Shown one piece after another: positions 2,164 through 28,948 of a stretch of DNA of 40,060 bases. Positions within the stretch are counted from its first letter, which is position 1. Every line of letters begins with the position of its first letter. Source of the DNA: a virus (lineage: Duplodnaviria; Heunggongvirae; Uroviricota; Caudoviricetes); IMG/VR virus record IMGVR_UViG_2563366805_000009; one strand, written 5' to 3'. The notes under the pieces were generated by a model. It did not search any database. It was given only the letters and a program-made list of their open reading frames with translations, and was not told the DNA's origin. The position numbers were made by a program, and so were the translations under genes.

Positions 2164-2367
2164 ATGACACCTAACATTTCAATTACTCTGAATACACCAC
2201 ATGTCACAATCGAACGTTATAGCGAACTGACTGGCCTTTCTATTGATACGATTAACGACATGTTGGCTGATGGCCGACTACCTCGTCATCGTCTTCGTAA
2301 AGACAAAAAACGTGAAAAGGTAATGATTAACCTGGCTGCTCTGACTGTTGATGCTTTGTCTGCTTAA
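2164..2367 (+). CDS. Cox/Apl-like small HTH regulator/excisionase
   Basis: 67-aa basic protein with an HTH-like segment ([25 protein letters not shown]). It is the first gene of the rightward early operon, opposite cI, as in P2 cox and 186 apl. Confidence 0.6.
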
Positions 2368-2431
2368 TAGACGTCTATTTTCGCAATAAGACGCTGAGTT
2401 CGATTTTGCGATAAGTTCGGAGTTGAAAACC

Positions 2432-2941
2432 ATGTTTGATTACCAAGTTTCCAAACATCCACATTTTGATGAAGCCTGTCGTGCATTCGCACTGCGCCAC
2501 AATCTGGTGCAACTGGCAGAACGTGCGGGCATGAATGTGCAGATTCTGCGGAACAAGCTGAACCCAGCTCAGCCTCATTTATTAACCGCACCAGAAATCT
2601 GGCTGCTTACCGATCTGACTGAAGATTCAACGCTGGTAGATGGTTTTCTGGCACAGATTCATTGTCTGCCATGTGTACCGATTAATGAGGTGGCAAAAGA
2701 GAAACTGCCACATTACGTCATGAGTGCAACCGCAGAGATCGGGCGTGTTGCTGCAGGTGCGGTATCTGGCGATGTAAAAACCAGTGCAGGTCGTCGTGAT
2801 GCTATCAGCAGCATTAACTCTGTAACACGACTGATGGCGTTGGCTGCTGTTTCATTGCAGGCCCGTTTACAGGCTAACCCTGCGATGGCGAGTGCAGTTG
2901 ATACCGTGACTGGCCTCGGTGCTTCATTCGGTTTGCTGTGA
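2432..2941 (+). CDS. cII: CII lysogeny-establishment activator (phage 186 CII family)
   Basis: [64 protein letters not shown] closely matches remembered 186 CII. ATG at 2432 follows GGAG and gives 169 aa. Confidence 0.8.
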
Positions 2942-2948
2942 GGTGCTT

Positions 2949-3245
2949 ATGCTGACGAAAGAACCATCATTTGCATCGCTGCTGGTAAAACAAAGCCCGG
3001 CAATGCACTACGGTCACGGCTGGATCACGGGTGAGGATGGAAAACGCTGGCATCCATGTCATTCACAAGATGAATTGCTGTCTGAATTGACCACGAGGAA
3101 ACGGAGAAAGTCCAAATGTATGCGGCAGAAAGTGAAGTGGTTTATCAGTTTCGTTACAGAGGGGAGAGTTATTCAGTACCTGAAGATGATTTGCTCTGTT
3201 GCTATCCGTCATTGTCGGGCGATGGCAGTTACTTTTTCGCGTTAA
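2949..3245 (+). CDS. Fil-like early protein
   Basis: MLTKEPSFASLLVKQSPAMHYGHGWI..GKRWHPC resembles the phage filamentation (Fil) family of 186-like phages. GAGG lies upstream of ATG 2949. The 3' end overlaps the next gene by 130 nt. Confidence 0.55.
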   Translation: MLTKEPSFASLLVKQSPAMHYGHGWITGEDGKRWHPCHSQDELLSELTTRKRRKSKCMRQKVKWFISFVTEGRVIQYLKMICSVAIRHCRAMAVTFSR

Positions 3246-3340
3246 AGGATGGGACGTTTTTACGGGGAGAGCAGGTTAAAGAGACGATACGAAAAAATGT
3301 ATCTCCTCTTGAGCGTTACCGTAAGAACAAAGAACGATAG
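3116..3340 (+). CDS. Hypothetical early protein (74 aa)
   Basis: GGAGAAAG RBS precedes ATG 3116. Same-strand position in the early operon. Confidence 0.5.
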   Translation: MYAAESEVVYQFRYRGESYSVPEDDLLCCYPSLSGDGSYFFALKDGTFLRGEQVKETIRKNVSPLERYRKNKER

Positions 3341-3362
3341 CTGCGTTTGGGGGATATGAAGT

Positions 3363-3704
3363 ATGGCAATTAATGGCGCTGCAGCAACTGTTCCATTAAG
3401 CCCCGGTGAACGCCTGAATGGACTTAATCACATTGCGGAGTTAAGGGCGAAAGTTTTTGGCCTGAATATTGAGTCAGAGCTTGAGCGGTTTATTAAAGAT
3501 ATGCGTGATCCACGGGATATCAATAATGAACAAAATAAACGGGCACTGGCTGCCATATTCTTTATGGCAAAAATTCCAGCTGAACGTCATAGCATCAGCA
3601 TTAATGAGCTGACCACTGACGAAAAGCGGGAGCTGATTAAAGCAATGAATCATTTTCGTGCAGTGGTGAGCTTATTTCCCAGACGGCTAACCATGCCGAA
3701 TTAA
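3363..3704 (+). CDS. Hypothetical early protein (113 aa)
   Basis: ORF with an upstream G-rich RBS, located in the early operon. Confidence 0.6.
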   Translation: MAINGAAATVPLSPGERLNGLNHIAELRAKVFGLNIESELERFIKDMRDPRDINNEQNKRALAAIFFMAKIPAERHSISINELTTDEKRELIKAMNHFRAVVSLFPRRLTMPN

Positions 3705-3771
3705 CCAACTAATGAAATTAATGGCGTAAACCCGCCGGGCATCCCTTTATCTAAATTCAGGAGAATTGATT

Positions 3772-4005
3772 ATGCGTAATATTGAAACCCTCACGACTAA
3801 AACCGGACCGGATGACGCAGGGCTTAATATTTTACTGACAGAGGCTCGTCTGGAAGAACGCCGGGCAAGGGCTGAAGCAATGGCAGCTCGCCTTGATAGC
3901 CTGGCGTGTCATATCTCATCCCGTCAGCTAAACCACGTGGAAGCGGCAGAACTGCTGCGTGTGACTGCTGAAGCAATCCAGAACGAAGCGCAGGAGATCC
4001 ACTAA
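3772..4005 (+). CDS. Hypothetical small helical early protein (77 aa)
   Basis: AGGAGA RBS lies 7 nt before ATG 3772. Its stop overlaps the next start (ATG 4005). Confidence 0.6.
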   Translation: MRNIETLTTKTGPDDAGLNILLTEARLEERRARAEAMAARLDSLACHISSRQLNHVEAAELLRVTAEAIQNEAQEIH

Positions 4006-4232
4006 TGGCTGATGCAATGGATCTCGTACAGCAGCGCGTTGAAGAAGAACGCCAGCGCCATATCCGTGCTGCCCGTGCCAAAACGCCGGGCGTGTCCCGC
4101 GTGCTTTGCGTTGAGTGTGAAGCGCCAATTCCGCCAGCACGCCGCCGTGCCATTCCGGGTGTGCAGCTTTGCATTACCTGTCAGGAAATCGCAGAGCTGA
4201 AAGGCAAACATTACAACGGGGGGGCTGTATGA
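4005..4232 (+). CDS. TraR/DksA-family C4 zinc-finger protein
   Basis: CVECEAPIP...CITCQ four-Cys motif in a 75-aa protein, as in P2 orf82-type proteins. Confidence 0.8.
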   Translation: MADAMDLVQQRVEEERQRHIRAARAKTPGVSRVLCVECEAPIPPARRRAIPGVQLCITCQEIAELKGKHYNGGAV

Positions 4233-5086
4233 GCACCATCCTGAAATGGGCGGGAAATAAAACCGCCGTAATGTCCGAACTGAAAAAACATCTTCCTGCT
4301 GGTCCGCGACTAGTTGAACCTTTCGCGGGTTCCTGTGCTGTGATGATGGAGACGGATTATCCCTGCTATCTGGTTGCGGATATTAATCCTGATTTAATCA
4401 ACCTCTATAAAAAGGTTGCCGCTGATTGTGAATCGTTTATATCTCGCGCCAAAGTTTTATTTGAGATCGCAAACAGGGAGGTGGCTTATTACAACATAAG
4501 GCAGGAGTTTAATTACTCAACTGAAATTACTGATTTCATGAAAGCGGTATATTTCCTGTATCTCAATCGTCACGGTTACCGTGGGTTATGTCGCTATAAC
4601 AAGAGCGGGCATTTCAACATTCCCTACGGTAATTATAAAAATCCGTATTTCCCTGAAAAAGAAATTCGCGCTTTTGCAGAAAAAGCCCAGCGAGCAACGT
4701 TTATCTGCGCCAGCTTTGATGAAACGCTGGCGATGTTGAAGGCGGGGGATGTGGTGTATTGCGATCCGCCTTATGACGGTACGTTTTCCGGCTATCACGC
4801 TGACGGCTTTACTGAAGATGACCAGTATCACCTGGCATCCGTTCTTGAACATCGGTCATCAGAAGGACATCCGGTCATTGTTTCTAACAGTGACACATCC
4901 CTGATCCGTTCGCTGTATCGCAATTTTACTCACCACTATATCAAGGTAAAACGCAGCATCGGCGTAGCAGCTGGTGAGAGTAAATCAGCAACAGAAATCA
5001 TTGCTGTTTCCGGGCCGCGCTGCTGGGTGGGATTTGATTATTCGCGTGGCGTGGATAGTTCTGCCGTGTACGGAGTACGTGCATGA
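4229..5086 (+). CDS. dam: DNA adenine methyltransferase (Dam-like, orphan)
   Basis: N-terminal LKWAGNK, FAGS (SAM-binding) and DPPY catalytic motifs. ATGA start/stop coupling with the upstream gene. No adjacent restriction gene. Confidence 0.9.
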
Positions 5087-7497
5087 GCCATGCCGATATG
5101 AGCAACTGCTGCGGCTTTAACGAGGCTGCCGCATCGTTCTCATGGAACAGCCCGAAAAAGGCCATTAACCCTTATCTGGACCCGGCGGAAGTTGCGCCGG
5201 TTTCTGCGCTTTCAAACCTGATCACTCTGTACGCTGCCGATAACGAGCAGGAACAACTGCGCCGCGAGGCACTGAGTGATCAGGTCTGGGAGCGTTATTT
5301 CTTTAATGAATCCCGTGATCCTGTCCAACGCGAAATAGAGCAGGATAAGCTCATTAGCCGGGCAAAGTTGGCGCATGAGCAGCAGCGTTTTAACCCGGAC
5401 ATGGTCATTCTGGCAGACGTCAGCGCCCAGCCCTCCCATATCAGCAAGCCGCTGATGCAACGTATTGAATACTTCAGCAGCTTGGGCAGGCCAAAGGCTT
5501 ATTCCCGCTATTTACGTGAGACGATTAAGCCATGTCTGGAACGACTGGAGCATGTACGCGACAGCCAGCTATCTGCATCTTTTCGTTTTATGGCAAGCCA
5601 TGTAGGGCTGGACGGCCTGCTGATTCTGCCTGAAATGAGTCAGGATCAGGTGAAACGCCTGTCTACCCTTGTCGCTGCGCATATGAGCATGTGCCTTGAT
5701 GCAGCTTGTGGTGATTTGTATGCCACCGATGACGTTAAGCCAGAAGAAATCCGCAAGACATGGGAAAAGGTGGCAGCGGAAACCCTGCGTCTGGATGTCA
5801 TCCCGCCTGCGTTTGAGCAACTCCGTCGGAAAAGAAACCGCCGTAAACCCGTGCCCTATGAACTCATTCCGGGTTCGCTGGCGCGTATGTTGTGCGCCGA
5901 CTGGTGGTACCGGAAATTATGGAAAATGCGTTGCGAATGGCGGGAAGAGCAGTTGCGTGCTGTCTGCCTGGTCAGCAAAAAAGCATCTCCCTATGTCAGC
6001 TATGAAGCCGTGATGCATAAACGTGAGCAGCGCCGCAAGTCACTGGAGTTTTTCCGTTCTCATGAACTGGTGAACGAAGAGGGCGACACGCTGGATATGG
6101 AAGACGTGGTAAACGCCAGCAGCAGCAACCCGGCGCACCGCCGCAATGAGATGATGGCCTGTGTTAAAGGTCTGGAGCTTATCGCGGAAATGCGCGGTGA
6201 CTGCGCCGTTTTCTACACCATTACCTGTCCGTCACGTTTCCATTCCACGCTCAATAACGGCAGACCAAACCCAACCTGGACAAATGCGACGGTAAGACAA
6301 AGCAGCGATTATCTGGTCGGCATGTTTGCTGCATTTCGTAAGGCGATGCACAAAGCCGGGTTGCGCTGGTATGGCGTGCGGGTGGCTGAGCCGCATCATG
6401 ACGGTACAGTTCACTGGCACCTGTTGTGTTTCATGCGCAAAAAAGACCGCCGCGCCATTACTGCATTGTTGCGTAAGTTTGCCATCCGTGAAGACCGCGA
6501 GGAACTGGGTAATAACACTGGTCCACGCTTTAAATCTGAGCTGATAAACCCGCGCAAAGGAACGCCGACAAGCTACATCGCGAAATACATCAGTAAGAAC
6601 ATTGACGGGCGTGGTCTGGCTGGCGAGATCAGCAAGGAAACGGGTAAATCCCTGCGTGATAACGCTGAATACGTTAATGCCTGGGCGTCTCTGCATCGTG
6701 TTCAGCAATTCCGCTTCTTTGGTATTCCGGGACGTCAGGCTTACCGTGAACTTCGCTTGCTGGCTGGTCAGGCGGCAAGGCAACAGGGTGACAAAAAAGC
6801 AGGTGCGCCGGTACTGGATAACCCGCGTCTTGATGCCATTCTGGCTGCTGCTGATGCTGGTTGTTTTGCCACCTACATCATGAAGCAGGGCGGCGTACTG
6901 GTTCCCCGCAAATATCACCTCATCAGAACCGCTTATGAAATCAACGAAGAGCCAACCGCCTATGGCGATCACGGTATTCGTATTTATGGCATCTGGTCAC
7001 CCATTGCAGAGGGCAAGATCTGCACTCATGCAGTGAAGTGGAAAATGGTTCGTAAGGCCGTTGACGTTCAGGAGGCGGCAGCCGACCAGGGCGCTTGCGC
7101 CCCTTGGACTCGTGGCAATAACTGTCCCCTTGCTGAAAATTTGAACCAACATGAGAAAGATGAATCAGCAGATGGGGATACCAGAACGGACATTACCTGC
7201 ATGGATGACAAGGAATTGCACGATTACCTGCACAGTATGAGCAAAAAAGAGCGCCGGGAACTGGCAGCAAGATTGCGCCTGGTTAAACCGAAACGGCGTA
7301 AAGACTACAAACAGCGAATTACAGAGTATCAGCGTCAGCAGCTCGTCTATGAACTGAAGTCCAGAGGATTTGATGGCAGCGAGAAAGAGGTCGATTTGCT
7401 CCTTTGCGGTGGCAGTATTCCGTCAGGAGCAGGCCTGCGTATCTTCTATCGGAACCAGCGTTTGCAGGAAGATGATAAGTGGCGGAACATGTATTAA
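5083..7497 (+). CDS. A: Replication initiation endonuclease gpA
   Basis: 804 aa with the HUH-type motif [13 protein letters not shown] and the catalytic Tyr motif [10 protein letters not shown], typical of P2/186 A proteins. Confidence 0.9.
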
Positions 7498-7589
7498 TCA
7501 CGCGGGTTAACAATTCGTGCTCTTAATAATACCAGGCATATCAGGCTGATGAACGTAAAAAAACGTTTTACATCAGTAAGATTATTATA

Positions 7590-7609
7590 TACTGTAAATA
7601 TAAACAGTG
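7590..7609. promoter_or_regulatory. LexA (SOS) box
   Basis: TACTGTAAATATAAACAGTG fits the consensus TACTG(TA)5CAGTA (CTGT-N8-ACAG). It lies 42 nt upstream of the AGGAGG-ATG at 7641-7651. Confidence 0.6.
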
Positions 7610-7749
7610 GTTATATGTACAGTATTGCGTATGGTGTTATAGGAGGAAAGATGCAGGACTATTTTTTGGAGTCTTTGAAGCTCCAGCGCATTGATTTTTT
7701 TCTTAAGCTTGTAGCGGCTAGTGAGTGTAGTGATGAAGAGAAGGGGCTA

Positions 7750-8902
7750 AATAGCTGCGCGGAATAGTAGATCACTGAAAGGGAACTCAGCCCGGATTGT
7801 GCGATCTGATCAATCGCCAAACCAACCAAAATCACCAACCGGACTGAGCGATGCCGATCATAGTACCAATACCCCGTGGCGAACGACGCCTGATGCAGAA
7901 AGCTATTCATAAAACGCGTGATAAAAATCATGCCCGCAGACTCACGGCCATGCTGATGCTTCATCGGGGTGAACGGGTCAGCGATGTTGCCAGAACTCTC
8001 TGTTGTGCCCGTTCATCCGTTGGTCGCTGGATTAACTGGTTTACGCACTCAGGTATTGAAGGCCTGAAATCCTTACCCGCAGGGCGCTCCCGACGCTGGC
8101 CTTTTGAACATATCTGCACCCTGTTACGTGAGCTGATAAAGCATTCTCCCGGCGATTTTGGTTATCAACGTTCACGCTGGAGCACCGAATTACTGGCAAT
8201 AAAAATCAATGAGATAACCGGTTGCCAGTTACATGCAGGAACCGTTCGCCGCTGGTTGCCATCTGCGGGGCTTGTATGGCGCAGGGCCGCGCCAACTCTG
8301 CGTATCCGTGACCCACATAAAGATGAAAAGATGGCGGTAATCCACAAAGCGCTGGATGAATGCAGCGCAGAGCATCCGGTATTTTATGAAGATGAAGTGG
8401 ATATCCACCTTAATCCTAAAATCGGTGCGGACTGGCAGTTGCGCGGACAGCAGAAACGGGTAGTGACGCCGGGGCAGAACGAAAAATACTATCTGGCCGG
8501 CGCACTGCACAGTGGCACGGGTAAAGTCAGCTACGTGGGCGGCAACAGCAAAAGTTCAGCGCTGTTTATCGCTCTGCTGAAGCACCTGAAAGCCACTTAC
8601 CGGCGGGCGAAAACAATCACGCTGATCGTTGATAACTACATTATCCATAAAAGCCGCGAAACACAGCGCTGGTTGAAAGCAAATCCCAAGTTCAGGGTAA
8701 TTTACCAGCCGGTTTACTCGCCGTGGGTGAATCATGTGGAACGGCTATGGCAGGCACTTCATGACACGATAACCCGTAATCATCAGTGCCGCTCAATGTG
8801 GCAGTTACTGAAAAAGGTCCGCCATTTTATGGAAACCGCCAGCCCATTCCCCGGAGGAAAACATGGTCAGGCAAAAGTGTAGCGGTATTAGGCGCAGCTA
8901 TT
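7750..8902 (+). mobile_element. IS630 (1153 bp, intact)
   Basis: Terminal inverted repeats: AATAGCTGCGCGGAATA at the left end, and the reverse complement AATAGCTGCGCCTAATA at the right end. TA duplication (7748-49 and 8903-04) within a CTAG target. The length equals the 1153 bp I recall for IS630. Confidence 0.9.
7851..8882 (+). CDS. IS630-family (Tc1/mariner-like) DDE transposase, 343 aa
   Basis: Full-length ORF between the IRs. N-terminal HTH regions and a DDE-type C-terminal domain (YEDEVDIHLNP ... LIVDNYIIHKS ... PWVNHVERLW). Confidence 0.95.
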   Translation: MPIIVPIPRGERRLMQKAIHKTRDKNHARRLTAMLMLHRGERVSDVARTLCCARSSVGRWINWFTHSGIEGLKSLPAGRSRRWPFEHICTLLRELIKHSPGDFGYQRSRWSTELLAIKINEITGCQLHAGTVRRWLPSAGLVWRRAAPTLRIRDPHKDEKMAVIHKALDECSAEHPVFYEDEVDIHLNPKIGADWQLRGQQKRVVTPGQNEKYYLAGALHSGTGKVSYVGGNSKSSALFIALLKHLKATYRRAKTITLIVDNYIIHKSRETQRWLKANPKFRVIYQPVYSPWVNHVERLWQALHDTITRNHQCRSMWQLLKKVRHFMETASPFPGGKHGQAKV

Positions 8903-9027
8903 TAGCTCTGCAGTGGGTTTCTGAATTGACTGATGAGTTGATGGCGAAAATTCGAAGCCATGAATACAGTAGGTCGATGGATGTAATCAGTTGAGCTTGT
9001 TTCGTTAGGACTTGATAAGGGAACCGA

Positions 9028-9048
9028 AAAGGGGCATTAAGCCCCTTT
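9028..9048. terminator. Hairpin between convergent genes (AAAGGGGC-attaa-GCCCCTTT)
   Basis: 8-bp GC-rich stem. It lies downstream of both the restored small ORF (+) and the 99-aa lipoprotein gene (-). Confidence 0.5.
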
Positions 9049-9061: not shown

Positions 9062-9361
9062 TTAGTTGTTCCCCAAAGAGCCGGCCATGGCTGCATATTT
9101 AATTTCTTCGCTGGGTATTTCAGGATGTAGTTGAATTTGCCTGATGATATAGCCAGGAACTTCGTCACTCCACAGTTTCGCCGCGTCCTTACAGACCTTA
9201 TACGCGAAGTCTCTATTCTCAAAGGCATAGGATTTTCCGTATGCATATTGCTGACAGGCATGAACATAAGCTCCGAAGTCGCCGTCTTTATCTGGCAAAG
9301 CACATCCAGCTAAGGCTATGATGATTGCTACTAACGTAAAGGAGAAAGTTATACGTTTCAT
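9062..9361 (-). CDS. Lipoprotein, unknown function (99 aa)
   Basis: Signal peptide with lipobox LAGC (MKRITFSFTLVAIIIALAGC). Confidence 0.7.
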   Translation of the reverse strand: MKRITFSFTLVAIIIALAGCALPDKDGDFGAYVHACQQYAYGKSYAFENRDFAYKVCKDAAKLWSDEVPGYIIRQIQLHPEIPSEEIKYAAMAGSLGNN

Positions 9362-9469: not shown

Positions 9470-10276
9470 TTATTTAGAAAGGTACTTATCTCTAAGTTGA
9501 TTCAGTCTGTCAGCATCGCGTTCTGAAAACTCGGCGTCACCATAGATCGATTTCCCATCTGCGTCTTCAAGGCCAATGACTGTGACGGTAAATATAGCAT
9601 CAGCCGGAACTTTAAGTTTTCCCCAATCAGAGTATCTATTAGGGGCTAATTTCCAGTTGGCTTTCTCACCTGGTTCCAGACCTCCAGAAATTTTATAGTT
9701 GAAGACGTCAGAGAACCAAGGGACGCTTCTTCCTGGGCTGGCAATAACTCCTTTGAAGAATACTCTGGCAACCGCTTTGTCTGTTCCGTTTTCAACGCTA
9801 ATATCCAGAATTGGCTGATCATTGCCGTAATCCTCTTTCTGGAAATAAAAACGGGAACGTTCGACCTTGAAGGCTTTCATTTTTTCCGCAGCCTGTGTTG
9901 CAGAGGTTTGTTTGGCTTCCAGTTCTTTTATTTCTTGCAGAGCCTGTTCTTTCTCTCTCTTCTCACGCTCAAGGCGAATAGTTTGTGCGTAATTTATAAC
10001 CTCATCACCAGTTTTACCTTCCAACGCTGACTTAATTTTTGTTTCGTAGACGTCCCCAGAAGACGTTCCAGCCTGCATTAGCTCTCTCATGTTGATTTGG
10101 CTAAAGGCAACGACTTTAACTGCATCATCAAACTGAGCTTTTTTATCTGCAGGTAAGGACTCTCTTACTTTTTGAATGGACTCTTTCATCGACTGATCGC
10201 TTGATGCATCGATCTTCGGTTTGTCACAAGCAGTAAGCAGCAGAGCAAAAGCAATTACGCCAGTTAATTTCTTCAT
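9470..10276 (-). CDS. Lipoprotein, unknown function (268 aa)
   Basis: The internal Met at 10276 gives MKKLTGVIAFALLLTAC (lipobox LTAC). Central coiled-coil-like EKREKEQALQEIKELEAK segment. The 24-codon upstream extension in the ORF track lacks support. Confidence 0.75.
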   Translation of the reverse strand: MKKLTGVIAFALLLTACDKPKIDASSDQSMKESIQKVRESLPADKKAQFDDAVKVVAFSQINMRELMQAGTSSGDVYETKIKSALEGKTGDEVINYAQTIRLEREKREKEQALQEIKELEAKQTSATQAAEKMKAFKVERSRFYFQKEDYGNDQPILDISVENGTDKAVARVFFKGVIASPGRSVPWFSDVFNYKISGGLEPGEKANWKLAPNRYSDWGKLKVPADAIFTVTVIGLEDADGKSIYGDAEFSERDADRLNQLRDKYLSK

Positions 10277-10437
10277 ATCCCTATCCCAATCGTAAAAAAA
10301 CAAGGCTAATCCTAACAGGATTAGCGGGCATGACAAACTCATAGCCATATAGGTGTGCTGTATAAATTAGCGGGATGAGAAAGCCTGCACAGACCCTCAT
10401 GTTGAAACTTGATTTTAGCTCAAAAGAGCTGACACTA

Positions 10438-10983: not shown

Positions 10984-12090
10984 ATGACAGGTAGTGTCCC
11001 AGTAGTGCTTTCTGAGTCTGAGTTAAAGTCGATCTTGACCTTAACTGAACGTTTCACATGGAACGTTGCAAGGCCAATTATTGCGTCTTTAGGGCTGCCA
11101 ACAGGTAGGGGGCGTGAAGCAACAAACGAAAAAATACTAGAAAGCCTCATTGATCTTAAAAGTAAAGATAGGCAAAAGTTTGATGGCATTATGGCAAACG
11201 TAAATGACCTAATTTTGGGTCAGGTCGTTTATGGTGAAAAAGCAATATTTAGTTTGACTGTAGATAATAGTGTAATTAAAACACTAAATGACAGATTTAG
11301 TTTCCAATGGAATTTGATGAATCAACCATCATTATTGGTTGATTCGATCCTTGATGATGTCCAATTGCAAAATGCTGTAAAAAATCAACCTGAACTTGTT
11401 AATTATTCTATTCAAAACACCCAGTCAATACTTGTTTTTTCATCTGTCAGAGAATTAGTTGTAAGAGAAAAAATTCCCCCGTCAGCACTTGCGCAATACA
11501 AGCAGTTTGATGAAATTATTGCAAAGCGAAAAGAAAAGCGACAATGTTTTGATGTCTGTATATTAGACTCTGTTACTAATAAAATTCATGTTTTGGTAGA
11601 TACTAATGGTAATATTATTGGTGATAATGTTACTTTTGCAAAGAGTAACATTATTCGTGAATTGTATAATCATGTCGGTTATGAATTTAAATCATCGGAA
11701 AAAGATTTTTATCCGTTAATTGAGCCAATTTTCAAACAAAATTCATTGCCTTATTCAAAATTAAGCTATAAAGTCTTTGATTTGTCATTTTTGACGAATG
11801 AGGGGACTACGCATAAAGAAAAGAAAAATGTGGCCACTAAAGACTTACGTGATGATTTGTTTAATAAGGAAGGCATCAAAGCAGTAGGCAGTATTGGTTT
11901 GTATCGTATTGGAATTAGAGTTGATAGAAATAATCCAAAACTGCAATTAGCGGATAACGTAGAGCTTATCATTCCGGGAACACTCCGCAGGCATCTAGGA
12001 GGGAGTAGTTGCTCTCCTGTTAACTATGCTATATTAAGTAAATGTATATCCAAAGATGATTTCGAAACCCTCACAAAGCTGATATTATAA
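10984..12090 (+). CDS. Unknown protein, gene 1 of the three-gene cassette (368 aa)
   Basis: Long AT-rich ORF. ATG 10984 is preceded by TAGGTG; GTG 10975 is an alternative start. No Walker A or other motif I recognise. A possible helix-extended-helix-like N-terminal segment (LGLPTGRGREATNEKILESLIDL). Confidence 0.8.
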   Translation: MTGSVPVVLSESELKSILTLTERFTWNVARPIIASLGLPTGRGREATNEKILESLIDLKSKDRQKFDGIMANVNDLILGQVVYGEKAIFSLTVDNSVIKTLNDRFSFQWNLMNQPSLLVDSILDDVQLQNAVKNQPELVNYSIQNTQSILVFSSVRELVVREKIPPSALAQYKQFDEIIAKRKEKRQCFDVCILDSVTNKIHVLVDTNGNIIGDNVTFAKSNIIRELYNHVGYEFKSSEKDFYPLIEPIFKQNSLPYSKLSYKVFDLSFLTNEGTTHKEKKNVATKDLRDDLFNKEGIKAVGSIGLYRIGIRVDRNNPKLQLADNVELIIPGTLRRHLGGSSCSPVNYAILSKCISKDDFETLTKLIL

Positions 12091-12102
12091 TTGGAGTCAG
12101 CA

Positions 12103-12537
12103 ATGAAGGATGGTGATATGCCCAAGATCATCAAAGAAATGTGTGCAGAACGCCCTGAAATTGGGGCGTTAGCTTGCTATTTGTACGATGAAATCGAGGC
12201 AAGGGCTAAAAAATCATCAAATATAGCTTTAAGTTATAAGGATTTATTTAATATAGCTGGTGGTTATAATAAGGTTTTACAGCCAGAAACGTATGAGCAG
12301 GTTATCTATCCGGCCATACAAATTCTTTGTAGCCCAAAGGTTGATTTTTTAAAACTCAATTATTGGTTCATTGATGATTTTCATGACCCTGTAGAACTTG
12401 AAATAGAGGAAGTTATTGAGGCGGAAATCAGTCAATCTTTAGCAAACCCATTTACAGGGGAGCTTATGTATGACTATAAGTCATTCGTATTTCCTTTTTT
12501 TACATTAGATGAATCTAAATCAAAGGATATTATCTGA
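12103..12537 (+). CDS. Unknown small acidic protein, gene 2 of the cassette (144 aa)
   Basis: GGAG at 12093 with ATG at 12103, 12 nt after the gene-1 stop. Asp/Glu-rich. No recognisable motif. Confidence 0.75.
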   Translation: MKDGDMPKIIKEMCAERPEIGALACYLYDEIEARAKKSSNIALSYKDLFNIAGGYNKVLQPETYEQVIYPAIQILCSPKVDFLKLNYWFIDDFHDPVELEIEEVIEAEISQSLANPFTGELMYDYKSFVFPFFTLDESKSKDII

Positions 12538-13202
12538 TGTTAAAAATGTCTGCAGCAATGAGTTTGGCTGATATTGATAATGATATTTTTCTTCAGCGTA
12601 TTAATGCTTCTATTACTCGTGTTAGATTTGCACTTCAATCGTACGATAATTTCAAACAATTTGTCAGGATTGAACTTGATTCTGCTGTAAAGGAAATAGA
12701 AGAGAATTCAAATAAGTTAAACTTCGATTTAACAGAAGATCAGCTTACTTTAATTTTATTGGCCAATATCAAAAATAAAGATATGGGCATTGAAGCATTT
12801 CATGAAAATAATCAGCGCGGACATTGTGATATTACAATAAAACTAAAGGATTATATTTGGCATGGCGAAGCCAAAAAACATACATCTTCATATAGTTATT
12901 TATTTAAAGGGTATGCTCAACTCACTGAACGATATAGTACAGGGACCGTAGACAGCGCAAGTGGTGGATTGATTATCTATACTCGTAATAGAAAATGTAA
13001 TGAAATGATGAGCAACTGGAAGGCGCATTTAGATAAATTCGCACCAAGAATTCATGCCTGTAAATCTATAACGATTACTCCTTGTCAAAAAAATCCATTG
13101 GTTTTTTATAGCCAGCATGTTCACACAGTTACTCAACTGAATTATGAAGTTATTCATTACCCTGTAAATCTATATCATGAGCCTGTAGATCCGGATCTTT
13201 AA
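12537..13202 (+). CDS. Putative PD-(D/E)xK-fold nuclease, gene 3 of the cassette (221 aa)
   Basis: Its start overlaps the gene-2 stop (TGATG). The sequence GIEAFHE..GHCDITIKLKDYIWHGEAKKH gives an E...D(98)-x12-E(111)-x-K(113) pattern typical of restriction-endonuclease-like folds. Confidence 0.75.
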   Translation: MLKMSAAMSLADIDNDIFLQRINASITRVRFALQSYDNFKQFVRIELDSAVKEIEENSNKLNFDLTEDQLTLILLANIKNKDMGIEAFHENNQRGHCDITIKLKDYIWHGEAKKHTSSYSYLFKGYAQLTERYSTGTVDSASGGLIIYTRNRKCNEMMSNWKAHLDKFAPRIHACKSITITPCQKNPLVFYSQHVHTVTQLNYEVIHYPVNLYHEPVDPDL

Positions 13203-14309: not shown

Positions 14310-16072
14310 AAAATCTCCACAATATTGCTGGTATTGGCGGATTCGCCCTGCAGCGGTTCGTTAAACAGTGCGTGCATCGTTGCCCAGGCCAGATCGGCGT
14401 GGCTGGCTTCTTCGCTGCGGCTGGCTTCATAGGTCGGGCGGTTGCCACTGGCGGTGGTGGCGCGACGGATTGCCATAAAGGACTGCGCTATGTCGGTGTG
14501 TCCGGCGTCAAACTCCAGACGGCGGTGGCTGATAATGTCGTAGGCCTTGAGTACCAGGGCGTTTTTAACGTTGGGGTTGTAGACAAACTCCCGGACGGCA
14601 GGAAAAAACGCTTTCACGTTCTCGTAAACCCCGTGACCAACGCCGGTTGAGTCGATACCGATATAGGTCACGTTGTACTGTTCGGTCAGTTTTTTGATGG
14701 CGTCAGCCTGGGCGCGGAAGTCCATTCCGCGCCACTGGTGACGCTCAAGAATGCGGAACTTACCGCCCGGCACGGCTGGCGGCGCCACCACCACGCATCC
14801 GGCGCTGTCGCCGTTCTGCGTACCTTTCGCCGGGTCATATCCGATCCACACTTCGCGCCAGCCAAACGGGCGCAGGGCCAGTGCATGAAAGTCGGTCCAG
14901 ACTTCCCAACTGTCCACCATGCACGCCTGCAGCTCGCTGAGTGGGAACACAGACGCGAGATCGTCCACGAACTCACACATCAGCAGGTTCTGGTATTCGT
15001 CCGGGCTGTACTCCATGCGCAACTGGTCGAGGTCGAACAGGTTACAGCCGCCGCGCACCGCATCTTCCACAGTGACTATCTGGCGGTACTGCCCGTCTGC
15101 GCACAGCAGGCCGGGGGCCAGATTGCTGTGGGACAGGTCGATGTCCACCTTATCGGCTTTGCTGCGCCCTCGGTTGAACAGCGCACCGGACCAGAACGGA
15201 TAAGCACTGTGTGTCAGGCTGGATGGCGTGGAAAAATAGGTTTGTCGCCATTTTTTGTGAATAGCCATACCGGAAGCCACTTTGCCCAGCTCCTGGAATT
15301 TCGGTATCCAGAAATATTCATCCAGATACAGGTTGCCGTGGTAACTCTGGGCCGTGCGGGCATTGGTGCCGAGGAAGTACAGCGTGGCCCCGTTAGGAAG
15401 CACCATCGGATCGCCTTTCAGCTCCACCTCCACTTCTTTGGCGAAGTCGATGATGTACTGCTTAAAGACGTGGGCCTGAGCCTTGCTGGCGGAAAGGAAA
15501 ATCTGGTTACGCCCGGTTAGCAGGGCGTCAATCAGGGCTTCACGGGCAAAATAGAAGGTCGCGCCGATCTGGCGTGACTTCAGCAGGTTGCGGATGCGGT
15601 TGGTTTTTCCGGCTTCCCACCAGTGGCGCTGGTAGTTGAACATGGAGGAATGGAAGATTTCTTCCAACTTCTCAATCTGTTCATCGGTGAAAACGTTCTT
15701 TTCCGGCTGACGGCGCGGGCCTTTGTTGCGGTTGGCGACGTTAGGGTTTAAGTCGGCTTCGTTGCCGCCATTGTTAAACTTGCCGATCCGCGCATGGCGC
15801 TCCGACTGGCGCGCCAGCAGGTCAATCTCTTTGAAATCTTTCCCTTCTTTGTGCTCCTTCATAATGAGCTGGCAGTAGCGTGCGGCGGTGGTGAGCTGCA
15901 TCTGATCAAGCGGCCCATAGTCACCCCACTTGTCGCGTTTTTTCCAGCTGTGAACGGTTGCAACTTTCTCGCCCAGCATTTCAGCAATGCGGGCTACGCG
16001 GTATCCCTGAAAGTACAGCAGCATGGCCTGCCGACGGGGATCGAGATCTGCGGGTGTCAGTGTGGTGTTCAT
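14306..16072 (-). CDS. P: Terminase large (ATPase) subunit gpP
   Basis: 588 aa, with P2 P-like order and size. Terminase-type motifs (RQIGATFYFA Walker-A-like region, DEYFWIP Walker B). Confidence 0.9.
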   Translation of the reverse strand: MNTTLTPADLDPRRQAMLLYFQGYRVARIAEMLGEKVATVHSWKKRDKWGDYGPLDQMQLTTAARYCQLIMKEHKEGKDFKEIDLLARQSERHARIGKFNNGGNEADLNPNVANRNKGPRRQPEKNVFTDEQIEKLEEIFHSSMFNYQRHWWEAGKTNRIRNLLKSRQIGATFYFAREALIDALLTGRNQIFLSASKAQAHVFKQYIIDFAKEVEVELKGDPMVLPNGATLYFLGTNARTAQSYHGNLYLDEYFWIPKFQELGKVASGMAIHKKWRQTYFSTPSSLTHSAYPFWSGALFNRGRSKADKVDIDLSHSNLAPGLLCADGQYRQIVTVEDAVRGGCNLFDLDQLRMEYSPDEYQNLLMCEFVDDLASVFPLSELQACMVDSWEVWTDFHALALRPFGWREVWIGYDPAKGTQNGDSAGCVVVAPPAVPGGKFRILERHQWRGMDFRAQADAIKKLTEQYNVTYIGIDSTGVGHGVYENVKAFFPAVREFVYNPNVKNALVLKAYDIISHRRLEFDAGHTDIAQSFMAIRRATTASGNRPTYEASRSEEASHADLAWATMHALFNEPLQGESANTSNIVEIF

Positions 16073-16118
16073 GGCACAAACCTACAGCCTTGAATGAAGG
16101 CTTTCCCCGCCTGCGGTT

Positions 16119-16136
16119 TGTGTGGTTGTCGGTACA
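16119..16136. promoter_or_regulatory. Ogr-type late-promoter dyad TGT-N12-ACA (P/O divergent region)
   Basis: TGTGTGGTTGTCGGTACA lies in the 142-bp P-O intergenic region, centred about 87 nt upstream of the O start codon. Confidence 0.55.
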
Positions 16137-16214
16137 AATACCGCGCATTGTTTCACTGCCCCCATCACCGCAACCATAAGGCTCCAGTAAGTTTTTTCTA
16201 ACGGAGCACGGCTC

Positions 16215-17048
16215 ATGACAGTGAAAGCAAAGCGTTTTCGCATCGGGGTGGAAGGTGCCACCACCGACGGACGCGAAATCCAGCGTGAATGGCTGGAACA
16301 GATGGCAGCCAGCTATAACCCGGCGGTGTATACCGCGCTGATTAACCTTGAGCACATCAAGTCTTATCTGCCGGACAGCACCTTTAACCGCTACGGCAAG
16401 GTGACGGCGCTGTTTGCTGAAGAAATCACGGAAGGTCCGCTGGCAGGCAAGATGGCGCTGTATGCTGACGTTGAGCCAACGGAGTCCCTGGTGGAACTGG
16501 TGAAAAAAGGCCAGAAATTATTCACCTCTATGGAAGTCAGCCCGAAGTTCGCTGATACGGGCAAAGCCTACCTGGTCGGCCTGGCTGCCACTGATGACCC
16601 TGCCAGTCTGGGCACTGAAATGCTGACATTCAGCGCCAGTGCAGCCCATAACCCGCTGGCAAACCGCAAGCAGAATCCCGCCAATCTCTTTACCGCCGCA
16701 GAGGAAACGGTGATCGAACTGGAAGAAGTCCAGGACGACAAACCGTCCCTGTTTGCCCGCGTCACGGCGCTGTTTACCAAAAAAGAGCAGTCCGATGACG
16801 CCCGGTTCTCTGATGTGCATAAGGCCGTGGAGCTGGTCGCCACTGAGCAGCAGAACCTGAGCGCACGCACCGAAAAATCCCTGTCTGAGCAGGAAGAACG
16901 CCTGTCTGAGCTGGAGACTGCCCTGCAGGCACAGCAAACCGCCTTTAACGAACTGGTGGACAAGCTGAGTCATGAAGACAGCCGCCAGGACTACCGCCAG
17001 CGTGCAACAGGCGGTAACGCCCCCGCTGACACTCTGACCAATTGCTGA
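16215..17048 (+). CDS. O: Capsid scaffolding protein gpO
   Basis: MTVKAKRFRIGVEGATTDGREI... is a typical P2 O N-terminus. 277 aa. Confidence 0.9.
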   Translation: MTVKAKRFRIGVEGATTDGREIQREWLEQMAASYNPAVYTALINLEHIKSYLPDSTFNRYGKVTALFAEEITEGPLAGKMALYADVEPTESLVELVKKGQKLFTSMEVSPKFADTGKAYLVGLAATDDPASLGTEMLTFSASAAHNPLANRKQNPANLFTAAEETVIELEEVQDDKPSLFARVTALFTKKEQSDDARFSDVHKAVELVATEQQNLSARTEKSLSEQEERLSELETALQAQQTAFNELVDKLSHEDSRQDYRQRATGGNAPADTLTNC

Positions 17049-24518: not shown

Positions 24519-25897
24519 GCACAAAATTTTATACCCTGCTGACGGATATTGGCGCGGCGAAACTTGTCAGCGCCGCCGCGCTCGGTGTGCCGCTAAAAAT
24601 TACCCATATGGCGGTGGGCGATGGTGGCGGAACATTGCCGACGCCGGACGCAAAGCAGAGTGCACTGGTAAATGAGAAACGTCGGGCTGCGCTGAATATG
24701 CTCTATATCGACCCACAGAACAGCAGCCAGATTATTGCTGAACAGGTGATCCCTGAAAACGAGGGCGGTTGGTGGATACGTGAAGTGGGCCTGTTTGATG
24801 AGTCAGGGGCATTGATTGCCGTGGGCAACTGCCCGGAAAGCTATAAGCCGCAACTGGCTGAAGGCAGCGGGCGTACCCAGACCGTGCGCATGGTGCTGAT
24901 TACCAGCAGCACGGACAATATCACCCTGAAAATCGACCCTGCTGTAGTGCTGGCAACCCGCAAGTATGTGGATGACAAGGCACTGGAGCTGAAGGTGTAC
25001 GCGGATGATCAGATGGCAAAACATCTTGCCGCACCGGACCCGCATTCACAGTATGCAGCCAAAGAAAGTCCTACGTTTACCGGGACACCCAAAGCGCCAA
25101 CGCCAGCGACGGGGAATAACACCACGCAGGTTGCGACCACCGCATTTGTTCAGGCGGCACTGACGGCTCTTATTAATGATGCGCCAGCCACGCTGGACAC
25201 GCTGAAAGAAATAGCCGTAGCCATTAACAATGATCCGAAATTCAGTACCACCATTAACAATGCGCTGGCACTGAAAGCGCCGCTGTCGAGTCCGGCACTC
25301 ACCGGAACGCCAACCGCACCGACTGCGGCACAGTCGGTCAACAATACACAGATTGCCACCACGGCATTTGTGAAATCGGCGATTGCGGCAATGGTGGGTT
25401 CTGCACCTGCGGCACTGGATACACTGAACGAACTGGCGGCGGCGCTGGGGAATGACCCGAACTTTGCCACGACAATGCTTAATGCACTGGCAGGTAAACA
25501 ACCGCTGGACAATACGCTGACTCATTTGAGTGGAAAGGATGTTGCTAGTCTTCTCGCATACCTTGGTTTGGGAGAAGCGGCAAAACGGAATGTGGGAACA
25601 GGGGAAAATCAGATACCTGATATGTCATCATATGCATCAGGTTCAGGCTGGCGAAAAATGCCAGATGGTTCAATTGAACAGTGGGGACGAATTAGTTTTC
25701 CTGGTGAACACGGGCCTGTATCCGCCAATGTTTCATTCCCGATTCCATTTACACAGACACCTGGCATTGTAATTGTGTGCGATGGTGGTTTCGGGGGCGG
25801 GAATATGTGGGGGGCGACCAACTGGAGCACTACCGGCTTCATAGCTCACTGCAATTATGGTCTTGAAGGTGGTGCGTTTTTCGCTAAGGGCTGGTAA
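24515..25897 (+). CDS. H: Tail fibre protein gpH (constant part fused to variable cassette Sv1)
   Basis: 460 aa with tail-fibre repeats (TTAFV..AP..LDTL.E.A.A..NDP.F.TT..NAL..K.PL, twice). Crossover site ix1 lies in-frame at 25551-25576. The C-terminal 110 aa (25565..25897) form the invertible cassette. Confidence 0.9.
25551..25576. other. Invertase crossover site ix1 (Hc half / Sv1 half)
   Basis: TTCTCGCATACC-TT-GGTTTGGGAGAA is a 26-bp imperfect palindrome resembling hix/gix/pix sites (compare hixL, TTCTTGAAAACC-AA-GGTTTTTGATAA). Confidence 0.75.
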
Positions 25898-26340
25898 TGA
25901 TGAAATATCTGTACGTAAACAACCTGGCATATCCTTACGAACTTCAGTCTCTTTATGTTGAAAAAGGTGAATGGCCTGAAGAAAAAGGTGTTGATATAGA
26001 CGAAGTAATTTTCAGGGAATATTTCTATGACACACCACCAGAAGGAAAATACAGATGTGTTGGAGAAGATGGACTGCCTGCATGGGCAGATATTCCTCCA
26101 CCAACACGTGAAGAACAAATTGCATCAGCCGAAACTAAAAAGCAGCAATTGATTAATCAGGCCAACGATTATATGAACAGTAGACAATGGGTTGGTAAAG
26201 CGGCTATTGGTCGTCTGAAAGGTGAGGAACTGGCGCAATATAATTTGTGGCTGGATTATCTGGACGCACTGGAGCTGGTCGATACTTCCGGTGCACCAGA
26301 TATTGAATGGCCTACGCCTCCGGCAGTTCAGGCCAGATGA
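25897..26340 (+). CDS. Tail fibre assembly chaperone Tfa1 (partner of Sv1, gpG/Mu U-like)
   Basis: 147 aa. ATGA coupling to the H stop. The C-terminal tail-fibre-assembly motif region overlaps the convergent Tfa2 gene. Confidence 0.85.
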   Translation: MMKYLYVNNLAYPYELQSLYVEKGEWPEEKGVDIDEVIFREYFYDTPPEGKYRCVGEDGLPAWADIPPPTREEQIASAETKKQQLINQANDYMNSRQWVGKAAIGRLKGEELAQYNLWLDYLDALELVDTSGAPDIEWPTPPAVQAR

Positions 26341-26914
26341 CATCCGGCGCGGTGCTGGTATCTGTTGCCGTCACCGCGTCAATGTAATCCAGCACGGCGT
26401 TAAGGCGGGTTGTTTCTGCCTGCGTCAGCTTCCGTCCGGCCTGTAATTTCAGTTGAATCAGACTGATGGAGGCCATTGCAGTATCAATCAGCGACTGGCG
26501 CTGTGCTTCTGCTGCATCTACTGCTGCGCCGTGCTGTGCCTCAGTATCGGTCACCCATTTCTCACCATCCCATTTATCGTATGGCGTTAACGGGGCGATA
26601 GTGGTTGTATTTTCAGGGTAATCACCCGGAGTTGTGATTTCTTTGGCTTCTCCCGTTTCGGTGTTATAGACGATTTCACCGCGATGGTCTGGCACATATT
26701 CCCATGAGTTAAAATCTGCAGAACGGCAGATAGCATAACCAGCCTTATATGTGCCTGGTGAATCTAAACAGGAATATGCCGGGATACCAACACCAACGGC
26801 AAGATATTCATTTGAAGTGGAAATATATTCCCGTATTTCACCATCATAGTTATAGACGGTAATATTCCCTGCCTTCGTGGCAATAATCTCGCTATTTAAT
26901 ACAGCGTTATCCAT
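26312..26914 (-). CDS. Tail fibre assembly chaperone Tfa2 (partner of Sv2), copy 1
   Basis: 200 aa. Convergent with Tfa1, as for Mu U/U'. Confidence 0.8.
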   Translation of the reverse strand: MDNAVLNSEIIATKAGNITVYNYDGEIREYISTSNEYLAVGVGIPAYSCLDSPGTYKAGYAICRSADFNSWEYVPDHRGEIVYNTETGEAKEITTPGDYPENTTTIAPLTPYDKWDGEKWVTDTEAQHGAAVDAAEAQRQSLIDTAMASISLIQLKLQAGRKLTQAETTRLNAVLDYIDAVTATDTSTAPDVIWPELPEA

Positions 26915-27393
26915 TATGCAGCCCTCACAATATAATTAAAGGCAATGTTACGTGGGCGGTTCTCATTTGCGGTTGGGACAACGGCTGAAGCATTAAAATT
27001 CGCATACAGGGAGCGTTGATACCCGGATGCTGATGCACCACTTAATGCGGGAGCTTTTGACTCCGAAGCCGAAAAGGCCCCTGACACGTATCCTAATAAC
27101 CCTTGTGAATCGCCAATTGAACTGTAGCCAACCACCCCGGTAATGTTTCGGATAGCATCTCCTTGTGCTGAAAGCAGAGTTCGCCCACTATCCACTCCCT
27201 TTCCACCATCCCAGCCACGAATAAACTCACCGCGTAAATCAGGCAATTTTAACGTCGGGTAAGCCTTTGCCAGATTAGGGTAATCTTCAGCAGAAAAAGC
27301 CGCACCGTTGCATTTCAGCCAGCCTGTTGGCGGTGTGGCTGAAGGCCATGGAACAGGCACACCAACAGGCAGCGCAGAGCCTTCCCCTAAACC
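26914..27393 (-). CDS. Silent alternative tail-fibre C-terminal cassette Sv2, copy 1 (no start of its own)
   Basis: The frame is continuous from crossover site ix2. GLGEGSALPVGVPVPWPSATPPTGWLKCNGAAFSAEDYP is a Mu S / tail-collar-type receptor-binding C-terminus. Confidence 0.75.
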   Translation of the reverse strand, partial: GLGEGSALPVGVPVPWPSATPPTGWLKCNGAAFSAEDYPNLAKAYPTLKLPDLRGEFIRGWDGGKGVDSGRTLLSAQGDAIRNITGVVGYSSIGDSQGLLGYVSGAFSASESKAPALSGASASGYQRSLYANFNASAVVPTANENRPRNIAFNYIVRAA

Positions 27394-27407
27394 AACGTTT
27401 AAGAAAA
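27382..27407. other. Crossover site ix2 (Sv2 half / invertase-side half)
   Basis: TTCCCCTAAACC-AA-CGTTTAAGAAAA. Confidence 0.7.
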
Positions 27408-27437: not shown

Positions 27438-27463
27438 TTCTCGCATACCTTGGTTTAGGGGAA
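27438..27463. other. Crossover site ix3 (duplicated Hc half / Sv2 half)
   Basis: TTCTCGCATACC-TT-GGTTTAGGGGAA, preceded by a 21-bp copy of the H constant region (27417..27437 is identical to 25530..25550). Confidence 0.7.
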
Positions 27464-27931
27464 GGCTCTGCGCTGCCTGTTGGTGTGCCTGTTCCATGGC
27501 CTTCAGCCACACCGCCAACAGGCTGGCTGAAATGCAACGGTGCGGCTTTTTCTGCTGAAGATTACCCTAATCTGGCAAAGGCTTACCCGACGTTAAAATT
27601 GCCTGATTTACGCGGTGAGTTTATTCGTGGCTGGGATGGTGGAAAGGGAGTGGATAGTGGGCGAACTCTGCTTTCAGCACAAGGAGATGCTATCCGAAAC
27701 ATTACCGGGGTGGTTGGCTACAGTTCAATTGGCGATTCACAAGGGTTATTAGGATACGTGTCAGGGGCCTTTTCGGCTTCGGAGTCAAAAGCTCCCGCAT
27801 TAAGTGGTGCATCAGCATCCGGGTATCAACGCTCCCTGTATGCGAATTTTAATGCTTCAGCCGTTGTCCCAACCGCAAATGAGAACCGCCCACGTAACAT
27901 TGCCTTTAATTATATTGTGAGGGCTGCATAA
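27452..27931 (+). CDS. Sv2 cassette, copy 2 (not joined to full-length H)
   Basis: Mirror image of 26914..27393. Confidence 0.7.
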   Translation, partial: GLGEGSALPVGVPVPWPSATPPTGWLKCNGAAFSAEDYPNLAKAYPTLKLPDLRGEFIRGWDGGKGVDSGRTLLSAQGDAIRNITGVVGYSSIGDSQGLLGYVSGAFSASESKAPALSGASASGYQRSLYANFNASAVVPTANENRPRNIAFNYIVRAA

Positions 27932-28533: not shown

Positions 28534-28948
28534 GCCATTCAATATCTGGTGCACCGGAAGTATCGACCAGCTCCAGTGCGTCCAGATAATCCAGCCACAA
28601 ATTATATTGCGCCAGTTCCTCACCTTTCAGACGACCAATAGCCGCTTTACCAACCCATTGTCTACTGTTCATATAATCGTTGGCCTGATTAATCAATTGC
28701 TGCTTTTTAGTTTCGGCTGATGCAATTTGTTCTTCACGTGTTGGTGGAGGAATATCTGCCCATGCAGGCAGTCCATCTTCTCCAACACATCTGTATTTTC
28801 CTTCTGGTGGTGTGTCATAGAAATATTCCCTGAAAATTACTTCGTCTATATCAACACCTTTTTCTTCAGGCCATTCACCTTTTTCAACATAAAGAGACTG
28901 AAGTTCGTAAGGATATGCCAGGTTGTTTACGTACAGATATTTCATCAT
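28505..28948 (-). CDS. Tfa1, copy 2
   Basis: Translation identical to 25897..26340. Confidence 0.75.
   Translation of the reverse strand: MMKYLYVNNLAYPYELQSLYVEKGEWPEEKGVDIDEVIFREYFYDTPPEGKYRCVGEDGLPAWADIPPPTREEQIASAETKKQQLINQANDYMNSRQWVGKAAIGRLKGEELAQYNLWLDYLDALELVDTSGAPDIEWPTPPAVQAR

Follow-up and report, generated by a model that had tools for sequence, protein, structure and literature searches.

What does a prophage lose when an insertion sequence (IS) comes to lie within the small, LexA-controlled gene that follows its replication gene? The question is raised by IMG/VR record IMGVR_UViG_2563366805_000009, a 40,060-nucleotide stretch of tailed-phage DNA (Caudoviricetes) that was analysed as a whole and is referred to here as the window, in which an IS630-family element interrupts a gene of 62 codons just 3' of replication endonuclease gene A. 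A first-pass annotation, made from the letters alone, had proposed from its position that this gene is a tum-like antirepressor, as in coliphage 186. The evidence presented here supports its identification as a short Tum antirepressor of the type found in Fels-2, PSP3 and DuoHS, the SOS switch of a 186-like prophage of the P2 group. The present allele is probably a recent loss-of-function insertion in that switch, within an otherwise intact prophage, and should block DNA-damage induction in cis. The interrupted locus is made up of the following features:

5083-7497, + strand: replication endonuclease gene A, 804 amino acids, annotated likewise at the same position in DuoHS, MS 115-1, RE-2010 and Cartapus
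7651-7749, + strand: 5' fragment of tum, codons 1-33 (helix 1 and the turn)
7651-7767, + strand: the open reading frame (ORF) as it stands today, 33 native residues followed by NSCAE and then TAG TAG
7750-8902, + strand: IS630-family IS, 1153 base pairs, in the same orientation as tum
8905-8994, + strand: 3' fragment of tum, codons 34-62 and the stop codon (helix 2, the most conserved part)

When the IS and one TA are deleted in silico, a CTAG is recreated and a 62-codon ORF, MQDYFLESLKLQRIDFFLKLVAASECSDEEKGLALQWVSELTDELMAKIRSHEYSRSMDVIS, ending at 8994, is obtained, as the first-pass annotation had reported. This excision can be regarded as exact, because the restored 400 nucleotides show 100% identity with 16 complete Escherichia coli genomes that lack the IS, and because the MS 115-1 prophage (NZ_CP146665.1) is 99.97% identical to either flank of the IS, in two alignments that overlap by exactly TA (2 base pairs). 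The comparison with IS-free relatives that had been suggested earlier is thereby in hand, with the MS 115-1 prophage and the 16 identical genomes all carrying the intact allele, which contains CTAG.

The restored protein is identical at 61 of its 62 positions (98%) to ECHS_RS04495, the 62-residue product of the gene directly 3' of the replication endonuclease gene in DuoHS, a prophage of E. coli HS. In-frame deletion of tum in DuoHS has been shown to abolish mitomycin C-induced lysis, as does lexA(Ind-) (PMC12055606, the Phollow paper), and it is this near-identity to a gene deleted as tum that forms the decisive link. The antirepressor role, the LexA dependence and the deletion phenotype are drawn from this and related literature, and the intact form of the present gene would be expected to share them. 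It has also been described that 186 Tum resembles a fusion of an antirepressor with DinI, and that in Fels-2 and PSP3 the tum region is split in two by a stop codon, so that the antirepressor is encoded upstream and dinI stands as a gene of its own downstream (Lemire et al., 2011; PMC3121763). The upstream gene of PSP3 is named there as the bearer of antirepressor activity, by way of Bunny et al. (2002).

While Pfam and NCBIfam hold no meaningful match for the 62-residue protein, PHROG 698 (labelled 'unknown function') is matched over its full length at E 1e-37. Residues 7-44 of 186 Tum match the same phrog_698 in the same register at E ~6e-6, and phrog_8554 and phrog_1993 are matched by both proteins. 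When 1.84 billion representatives were searched exhaustively with a profile, only 87 relatives were returned, nearly all of them stand-alone proteins of 50-75 amino acids, and BLASTP aligns one of these (P0312), a bridging sequence, with the 186 Tum N-terminal domain (E 7e-9). When a diverse alignment of the family (A5) was compared by hhalign with an alignment of stand-alone and fused 186-type Tum N-termini, some of them named 'Tum protein' by NCBI (A4), a probability of 96.3% and an E-value of 1.6e-9 were obtained, with residues 1-45 in register; the diverse homologues from the representative search were required for this detection. The profile matches, the bridge and the alignment of the two families together place the 62-residue protein, at the level of sequence, in a family that is sister to the N-terminal, antirepressor half of 186 Tum, the half outside DinI.

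The homologues stand at the same position after gene A, and the positional argument has been backed by the identity to the DuoHS gene, by published genetics and by homology to the Tum N-terminus. Many P2-like phages, from Escherichia, Klebsiella, Salmonella, Cronobacter and Yersinia, have this gene 3' of gene A; the layout of gene A followed by tum with a LexA box is found in 186, RE-2010, Cartapus, DuoHS, ST437phi4.1 and ESSI2_ev015, and MS 115-1 shares the order of the two genes. In the source records the 62-residue family is named 'hypothetical protein' or 'levan regulatory protein'.

The target that such an antirepressor would need is present in the window:

1449-2018, - strand: cI immunity repressor, 189 amino acids, 186-type, presumed target of Tum; start codon according to the MS 115-1 annotation

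The earlier assignment of 186-type cI and cII genes is borne out by the Pfam domains Phage_CI_repr and Phage_CI_C in CI (E 3e-31 and 5e-29), by 33% identity to 186 CI, and by the membership of cII in the 186-type CP76 family. CI does not look like a self-cleaving S24 repressor, as its Peptidase_S24 score of 16 bits lies below the cut-off of 23; with DuoHS CI it shares 86% of its residues, including all of the last ~70. In 186, Tum has been shown to act by sequestering CI (PMC7708051). The AlphaFold model of the 62-residue protein is a helical hairpin of helices 2-23 and 28-61, with a mean predicted local distance difference test score (pLDDT) of 90; searches of the PDB by sequence and by fold found generic helical hairpins only, none at E <= 0.001. 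The invariant residues of short Tum are densest at 33-53, and with the IS cut the invariant block 34-53 is lost along with almost the whole of helix 2. Since the IS lies after residue 33, the SOS promoter can yield only helix 1 and the turn, and from this lost conserved helix, taken with the deletion phenotype of the DuoHS orthologue, we infer loss of function of this allele and a loss of inducibility.

Among six phages compared, Tum identity tracks the identity of the N-terminal, DNA-binding domain of CI and not that of its C-terminal domain; the window and Cartapus have identical Tum proteins (100%), CI N-terminal domains 70% identical and CI C-terminal domains 33% identical. This pattern, drawn from a small set of related sequences, hints weakly that Tum may contact the N-terminal domain of CI. 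Short Tum itself hardly varies among phages with very different CI C-terminal domains.

The operator and translation start of the gene comprise the following features:

7567-7595, + strand: putative p95-like promoter, -35 TTTACA at 7567-7572, a 17-nucleotide spacer and -10 TACTGT at 7590-7595, as read from the sequence
7590-7609, + strand: LexA box 1, TACTGTAAATATAAACAGTG, identical in DuoHS, RE-2010 and Cartapus
7605-7624, + strand: LexA box 2, CAGTGGTTATATGTACAGTA, sharing 5 nucleotides with box 1, with 3 mismatches to the pattern on the - strand
7641-7646, + strand: ribosome-binding site AGGAGG, 4 nucleotides 5' of the ATG at 7651, identified by sequence

The SOS box that had been reported upstream of an AGGAGG-ATG is thus found as described, and box 1 is the sole occurrence of CTGT-N8-ACAG in the 40 kilobases of the window; a degenerate version of the 20-mer gave 0 matches in 100 shuffles. 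To this operator a second, overlapping box, which the earlier description did not mention, has now to be added. The right half-site of box 2 is kept among relatives, and the boxes are conserved in sequence even where the flanks have diverged. At the level of sequence the tum operator is a double overlapping SOS box of the colicin type, probably occupied by two LexA dimers. The double box is present in DuoHS, RE-2010, Cartapus and Klebsiella phage ST437phi4.1, and a single box is found in 186 and ESSI2_ev015. The -10 hexamer of the putative promoter lies inside box 1, the same architecture as that of the annotated p95 promoter of 186, whose -10 is formed by the first six bases of its LexA box.

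The likeness to colicin operators extends to the bases themselves, as the second SOS box 5' of a colicin-like bacteriocin gene on plasmid pAp is a 100% match to tum box 2, positions 7585-7626 are matched by 908 plasmid records, and, on hundreds of Col-type plasmids, the promoter region of colicin-like bacteriocin genes shares ~90% identity with the 35-nucleotide double-box unit. In colicin operons, the double SOS box has been described as giving very tight repression of a lethal function (PMC2994835). An operator of this type suggests that prophage induction, like colicin release, is delayed until the SOS response is strong.

A further LexA-like box, TACTGTATGTATAACCAGTG, in which CTG-N10-CAG is kept, was seen at 1083-1102, 30 nucleotides 5' of the integrase start codon, between a 63-codon ORF and int. 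DuoHS and MS 115-1 have the identical box, through which int might be under SOS control. The 63-codon ORF itself (1242-1433, - strand) lies between cI and int and encodes a protein with a hydrophobic N-terminus and several cysteines, which has no Pfam match and is called 'hypothetical protein' in DuoHS and MS 115-1.

The interrupting element is delimited by the following features:

7748-7749, no strand: left TA target duplication, inside CTAG, from the flank alignment
7851-8882, + strand: IS630-family transposase, 343 amino acids, with Pfam DDE_3 and HTH_23/HTH_32/HTH_29
8903-8904, no strand: right TA target duplication

The ends of the element form terminal inverted repeats (AATAGCTGCGC...GCGCAGCTATT), and identical copies of the transposase are labelled in RefSeq as 'IS630-like element ISEc33 family transposase'. 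IS630 has been described as using CTAG as its target with a duplication of 2 base pairs (PMC2577343, Table 1), and the element shows each feature of that family, namely a length of ~1.15 kilobases, inverted repeats, a single DDE_3 transposase and insertion at the TA of a CTAG with a 2-base-pair duplication. The interruption by IS630 after codon 33, between codons 33 and 34, therefore stands as first reported. The codon for Leu33 is CTG in most relatives and CTA in this lineage, and it is this CTA that creates the CTAG used by the IS. The 39-nucleotide junction between IS and tum, GATGAAGAGAAGGGGCTAAATAGCTGCGCGGAATAGTAG, was found neither in 5,426 complete E. coli genomes nor in the GTDB species representatives; this, together with the near-identical IS-free prophage, points to an insertion that is recent and so far unique.

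How unusual such an allele is can be judged from the same genomes, among which ~1,100 of the 5,426 (~20%) have a tum homologue at >=89% identity, some with up to 3 copies. The gene is contiguous in all but two of the 1105 carrier records (1103), and one of these two exceptions lies at the end of a record. Such integrity argues that tum is under selection and that the present allele is a rare knockout, and disruption of tum would seem to be exceptional and not a common route by which prophages are tamed.

The prophage around the gene appears sound. When it is compared over 37 kilobases with the IS-free MS 115-1 prophage, which has the same genes at the same rcdA/ybjL site, 8 single-nucleotide polymorphisms are found outside the boundaries of an inverted tail-fibre segment, none of which makes a stop codon, and no sign of decay was seen beyond the IS and the inverted duplication in that segment. 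The suggestion that the IS had domesticated the prophage is therefore overstated, and its state suggests that SOS induction was locked very recently, and not that the prophage is decaying.

The inverted duplication, of 1857 nucleotides, occupies 25551-27407 and 27438-29294 in the invertible tail-fibre segment, its arms being 99% complementary and separated by 30 nucleotides; a recombinase gene (29344-29916) adjoins it, and MS 115-1 has a single copy of the duplicated segment (14632-16467 of its prophage stretch). It could be an invertase-mediated rearrangement or an assembly artefact from an orientation-mixed population.

Three other records with irregularities at or near tum were encountered. 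P0119, at first sight another case of tum broken independently, at codon 53, was rejected as a fold-back chimera at the end of a metagenome contig (ENA ERZ28605111, contig 2999-3115), where the neighbouring dinI, reverse-complemented, takes over from the tum ORF beyond that codon and a spurious 74-residue protein results. Klebsiella pneumoniae p1878-9k (NZ_CP072999.1) is a 9.1-kilobase circular record of the early region, from cI to A, of a P2-like phage, with a group II intron (ltrA) at 2501-4401 immediately 3' of LexA box 1; either a misassembly or a further mobile-element hit at this locus could explain it, and as a circularised phage fragment without tum it was set aside as uninformative. 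In Escherichia phage 500465-1 (NC_049342.1), IS21-family (IS100kyp) genes at 2249-3481 interrupt the gene A region just 5' of an intact tum-dinI pair, and a gene for a TIR-domain cargo protein comes next.

Put together, these observations suggest the following course of events. In the intact state, LexA would cover the -10 region and the promoter start just 3' of gene A. DNA damage would lead to RecA-stimulated cleavage of LexA and so to the synthesis of Tum, a helical hairpin that would bind the 186-type CI stoichiometrically and block its binding to the operator, whereupon the early lytic promoter would fire and the prophage enter lytic growth. With an IS630-family element transposed into the CTAG at codons 33-34, the LexA-controlled promoter would now give a 38-residue stub without helix 2 and would also read into the co-oriented transposase gene, and the otherwise intact prophage would be expected to have lost its DNA-damage inducibility in cis.

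Several points weigh against this account. The first-pass annotation had seen no similarity to Tum, and for direct comparison this holds, as BLASTP of the 62-residue protein against 186 Tum gives no alignment and hhalign with a narrow profile reaches a probability of only 23%; only profiles built from diverse homologues and bridging sequences bring out the N-terminal homology, and it is on these that the relationship to 186 Tum would rest. The tum promoter was not called by a consensus promoter scan. The statement on PSP3 antirepressor activity is a personal communication that PMC3121763 cites at second hand. In the literature consulted, CI binding by short-form Tum was not found as biochemistry, the biochemistry being that of 186 Tum only. 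Further, two Tum fragments, residues 1-33 from the SOS promoter and residues 34-62 from an ORF that begins within the IS, could in principle be made and complement each other, and another prophage elsewhere in the host genome, the analysis having covered the window, could supply Tum in trans.

The last two points belong to a broader alternative, in which the phenotype is hardly changed by the insertion and SOS induction of the prophage still works, whether through an active stub, reassembly of the two halves, Tum supplied in trans by a co-resident 186/Fels-2-like prophage, or excision of the IS. The reading frame on which reassembly would depend does exist:

8863-8994, + strand: ORF of 43 codons with a GGAGG-ATG within the right IS end, overlapping the end of the transposase gene and running in frame into tum codons 34-62 (the last 29 codons)

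This ORF would bring 14 foreign residues, however, and no promoter of its own was identified. For supply in trans, it has been documented that antirepressors act between Salmonella prophages (PMC3121763). With a short Tum that is near-invariant despite divergent CI C-terminal domains, cross-activation of heteroimmune relatives is plausible, and ~20% of E. coli genomes have a tum-type gene, some in up to 3 copies; the window, however, is without a second tum. As for an active stub, it would lack block 34-53, which is invariant, and almost all of helix 2, and in-frame deletion of the 98%-identical DuoHS gene abolished induction. Persistence of inducibility by any of these routes is accordingly considered unlikely, and the loss-of-function insertion is retained as the preferred account.

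Another alternative places the main consequence of the insertion on the side of the IS, with the transposase brought under the LexA-controlled tum promoter, transposition and excision made inducible by DNA damage, and the lock on the prophage made conditionally reversible. The arrangement is suited to this, as the transposase gene is on the same strand, 200 nucleotides 3' of the tum ATG, the stub ORF ends 84 nucleotides 5' of the transposase ATG, and a terminator scan found no + strand terminator-like site from the promoter to the transposase gene. This is a purely structural argument, however; the ribosome-binding site of the transposase is weak, many ISs are shielded from read-through, and excision of Tc1/IS630-type elements usually leaves a break or a footprint and not a clean restoration. 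That this should be the main consequence is very improbable, and it would in any case be an addition to the loss-of-function account and not a competitor of it. In its fullest form, in which DNA damage sets off IS transposition or excision through the rewired double-box promoter instead of induction, and an occasional clean excision at CTAG re-arms the prophage, the idea is highly speculative; if true, it would amount to an SOS-gated, reversible lock on prophage inducibility.

That the 62-residue protein is no antirepressor at all and instead an SOS-induced accessory protein with another role, whose disruption is irrelevant to induction, could draw on the lack of a Pfam or NCBIfam family, on the uninformative PHROG label and database names and on a fold search that gave generic hairpins only, and it is dismissed as barely credible in view of the deletion phenotype of the DuoHS gene, the homology to the antirepressor half of 186 Tum, and a conserved position and LexA control with a 186-type CI alongside in every relative examined.

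In the present lineage the interrupted gene stands without a dinI companion. In RE-2010, Cartapus and others, a separate 77-residue DinI-family gene lies 10 nucleotides 3' of tum, and the lineage of the window, including MS 115-1, has tum with neither dinI nor orf97. No second tum, dinI or orf97 is present in the window, where tblastn with RE-2010 DinI gave nothing significant, and the PF06183 DinI domain is found neither in the 62-residue protein, by Pfam, nor in the next gene. Since dinI is missing from the window lineage and from ESSI2_ev015 alike, the DinI part appears to be dispensable for the tum module. Escherichia phage ESSI2_ev015 has, at 7380-7713, a distant Tum-like gene of 70 codons (~50% identical) with a single perfect LexA box, TACTGTGTTTATATACAGTT, adjoining the portal module, an arrangement from which the minimal module would consist of a box and a short tum.

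Beyond the 3' end of tum lies a further element:

9028-9048, no strand: GC-rich hairpin between tum and the convergent gene 9062-9361

The hairpin reported after the restored ORF is present. It is without a T-tract on the + strand, and the terminator scan called neither strand; it may act for the convergent gene. Between tum and the portal gene, the cargo consists of this 99-codon ORF (9062-9361, - strand), a gene for a DUF6694 lipoprotein (9470-10348, - strand) and three + strand genes at 10984-13202 (368, 139 and 221 amino acids). PADLOC found no system among the cargo genes, and Pfam gave no significant match except DUF6694. In P2-like phages this region is a hotspot of anti-phage systems, and the three-gene cluster could be such a system, as yet undescribed.

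Neither the gene family nor its regulation and role are new, all having been described in 186, Fels-2/PSP3 and DuoHS, and the IS family and its target rule are known as well; what is new here is one rare allele, together with such details as the gap in annotation, a lineage without dinI and an operator of the colicin double type. The locus is a natural knockout of an SOS switch and not a new kind of system, and the current view of 186-type induction is unchanged by it. Its value lies partly in annotation, as a 62-residue family that is found in ~20% of complete E. coli genomes and across Enterobacterales, and is still called 'hypothetical', 'levan regulatory protein' or 'unknown function', can be named as a prophage SOS switch, and partly in the rare IS-locked allele, which in an otherwise intact prophage offers a convenient natural control for induction studies.

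Compared with known systems, the inserted element resembles IS630 of Shigella sonnei and ISEc33 in its length of 1153 base pairs, its TA duplication in CTAG, its 343-residue DDE_3 transposase and its inverted repeats, and no difference was found among the sequences compared, which did not include the ISfinder reference. The operator resembles that of the colicin operon on the ColRNAI plasmid pAp, where two 20-base-pair LexA boxes also share 5 nucleotides, box 2 matching base for base and box 1 with 3 differences; there, however, the boxes control a plasmid bacteriocin-lysis operon instead of a prophage antirepressor and, by our own reading, lie 3' of the -10 without overlapping it. The Gifsy/Fels-1 antirepressors GfoA, GftA and FsoA and AntC of N15 have been described as small, LexA-controlled proteins that bind their repressor without triggering its cleavage and can act in trans (PMC3121763). 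From the literature descriptions, these differ in that they belong with a lambdoid/DicA-like repressor family and have dinI first, as opposed to the 186-type (not GfoR-type) repressor of the window.

In 186 itself there is likewise a LexA-repressed promoter after gene A, with its -10 TACTGT in the box, a CI target of the same type, the same antirepressor logic, and a Tum whose N-terminal ~45 residues are homologous. However, 186 Tum has 146 residues, is only ~18% identical to the 62-residue protein, has a DinI domain as its C-terminal half and has internal starts, and its gene is preceded by a single LexA box and followed by orf97. Fels-2, RE-2010 and PSP3 are closer, in that the upstream gene is a stand-alone one of ~62 codons, that of RE-2010 being 95% identical with the same operator, although in these phages the downstream dinI homologue has been retained and the genes are intact. 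DuoHS, for its part, has its tum at the same post-gene-A position, the same rcdA/ybjL insertion site, an identical box 1 and ribosome-binding site, and a box 2 with two differences confined to the spacer and unchanged half-sites. In DuoHS, however, an intact tum is followed 10 nucleotides later by a dinI-like gene, as opposed to the split tum, the absence of dinI and the other cargo genes, as in MS 115-1, that distinguish the prophage described here.

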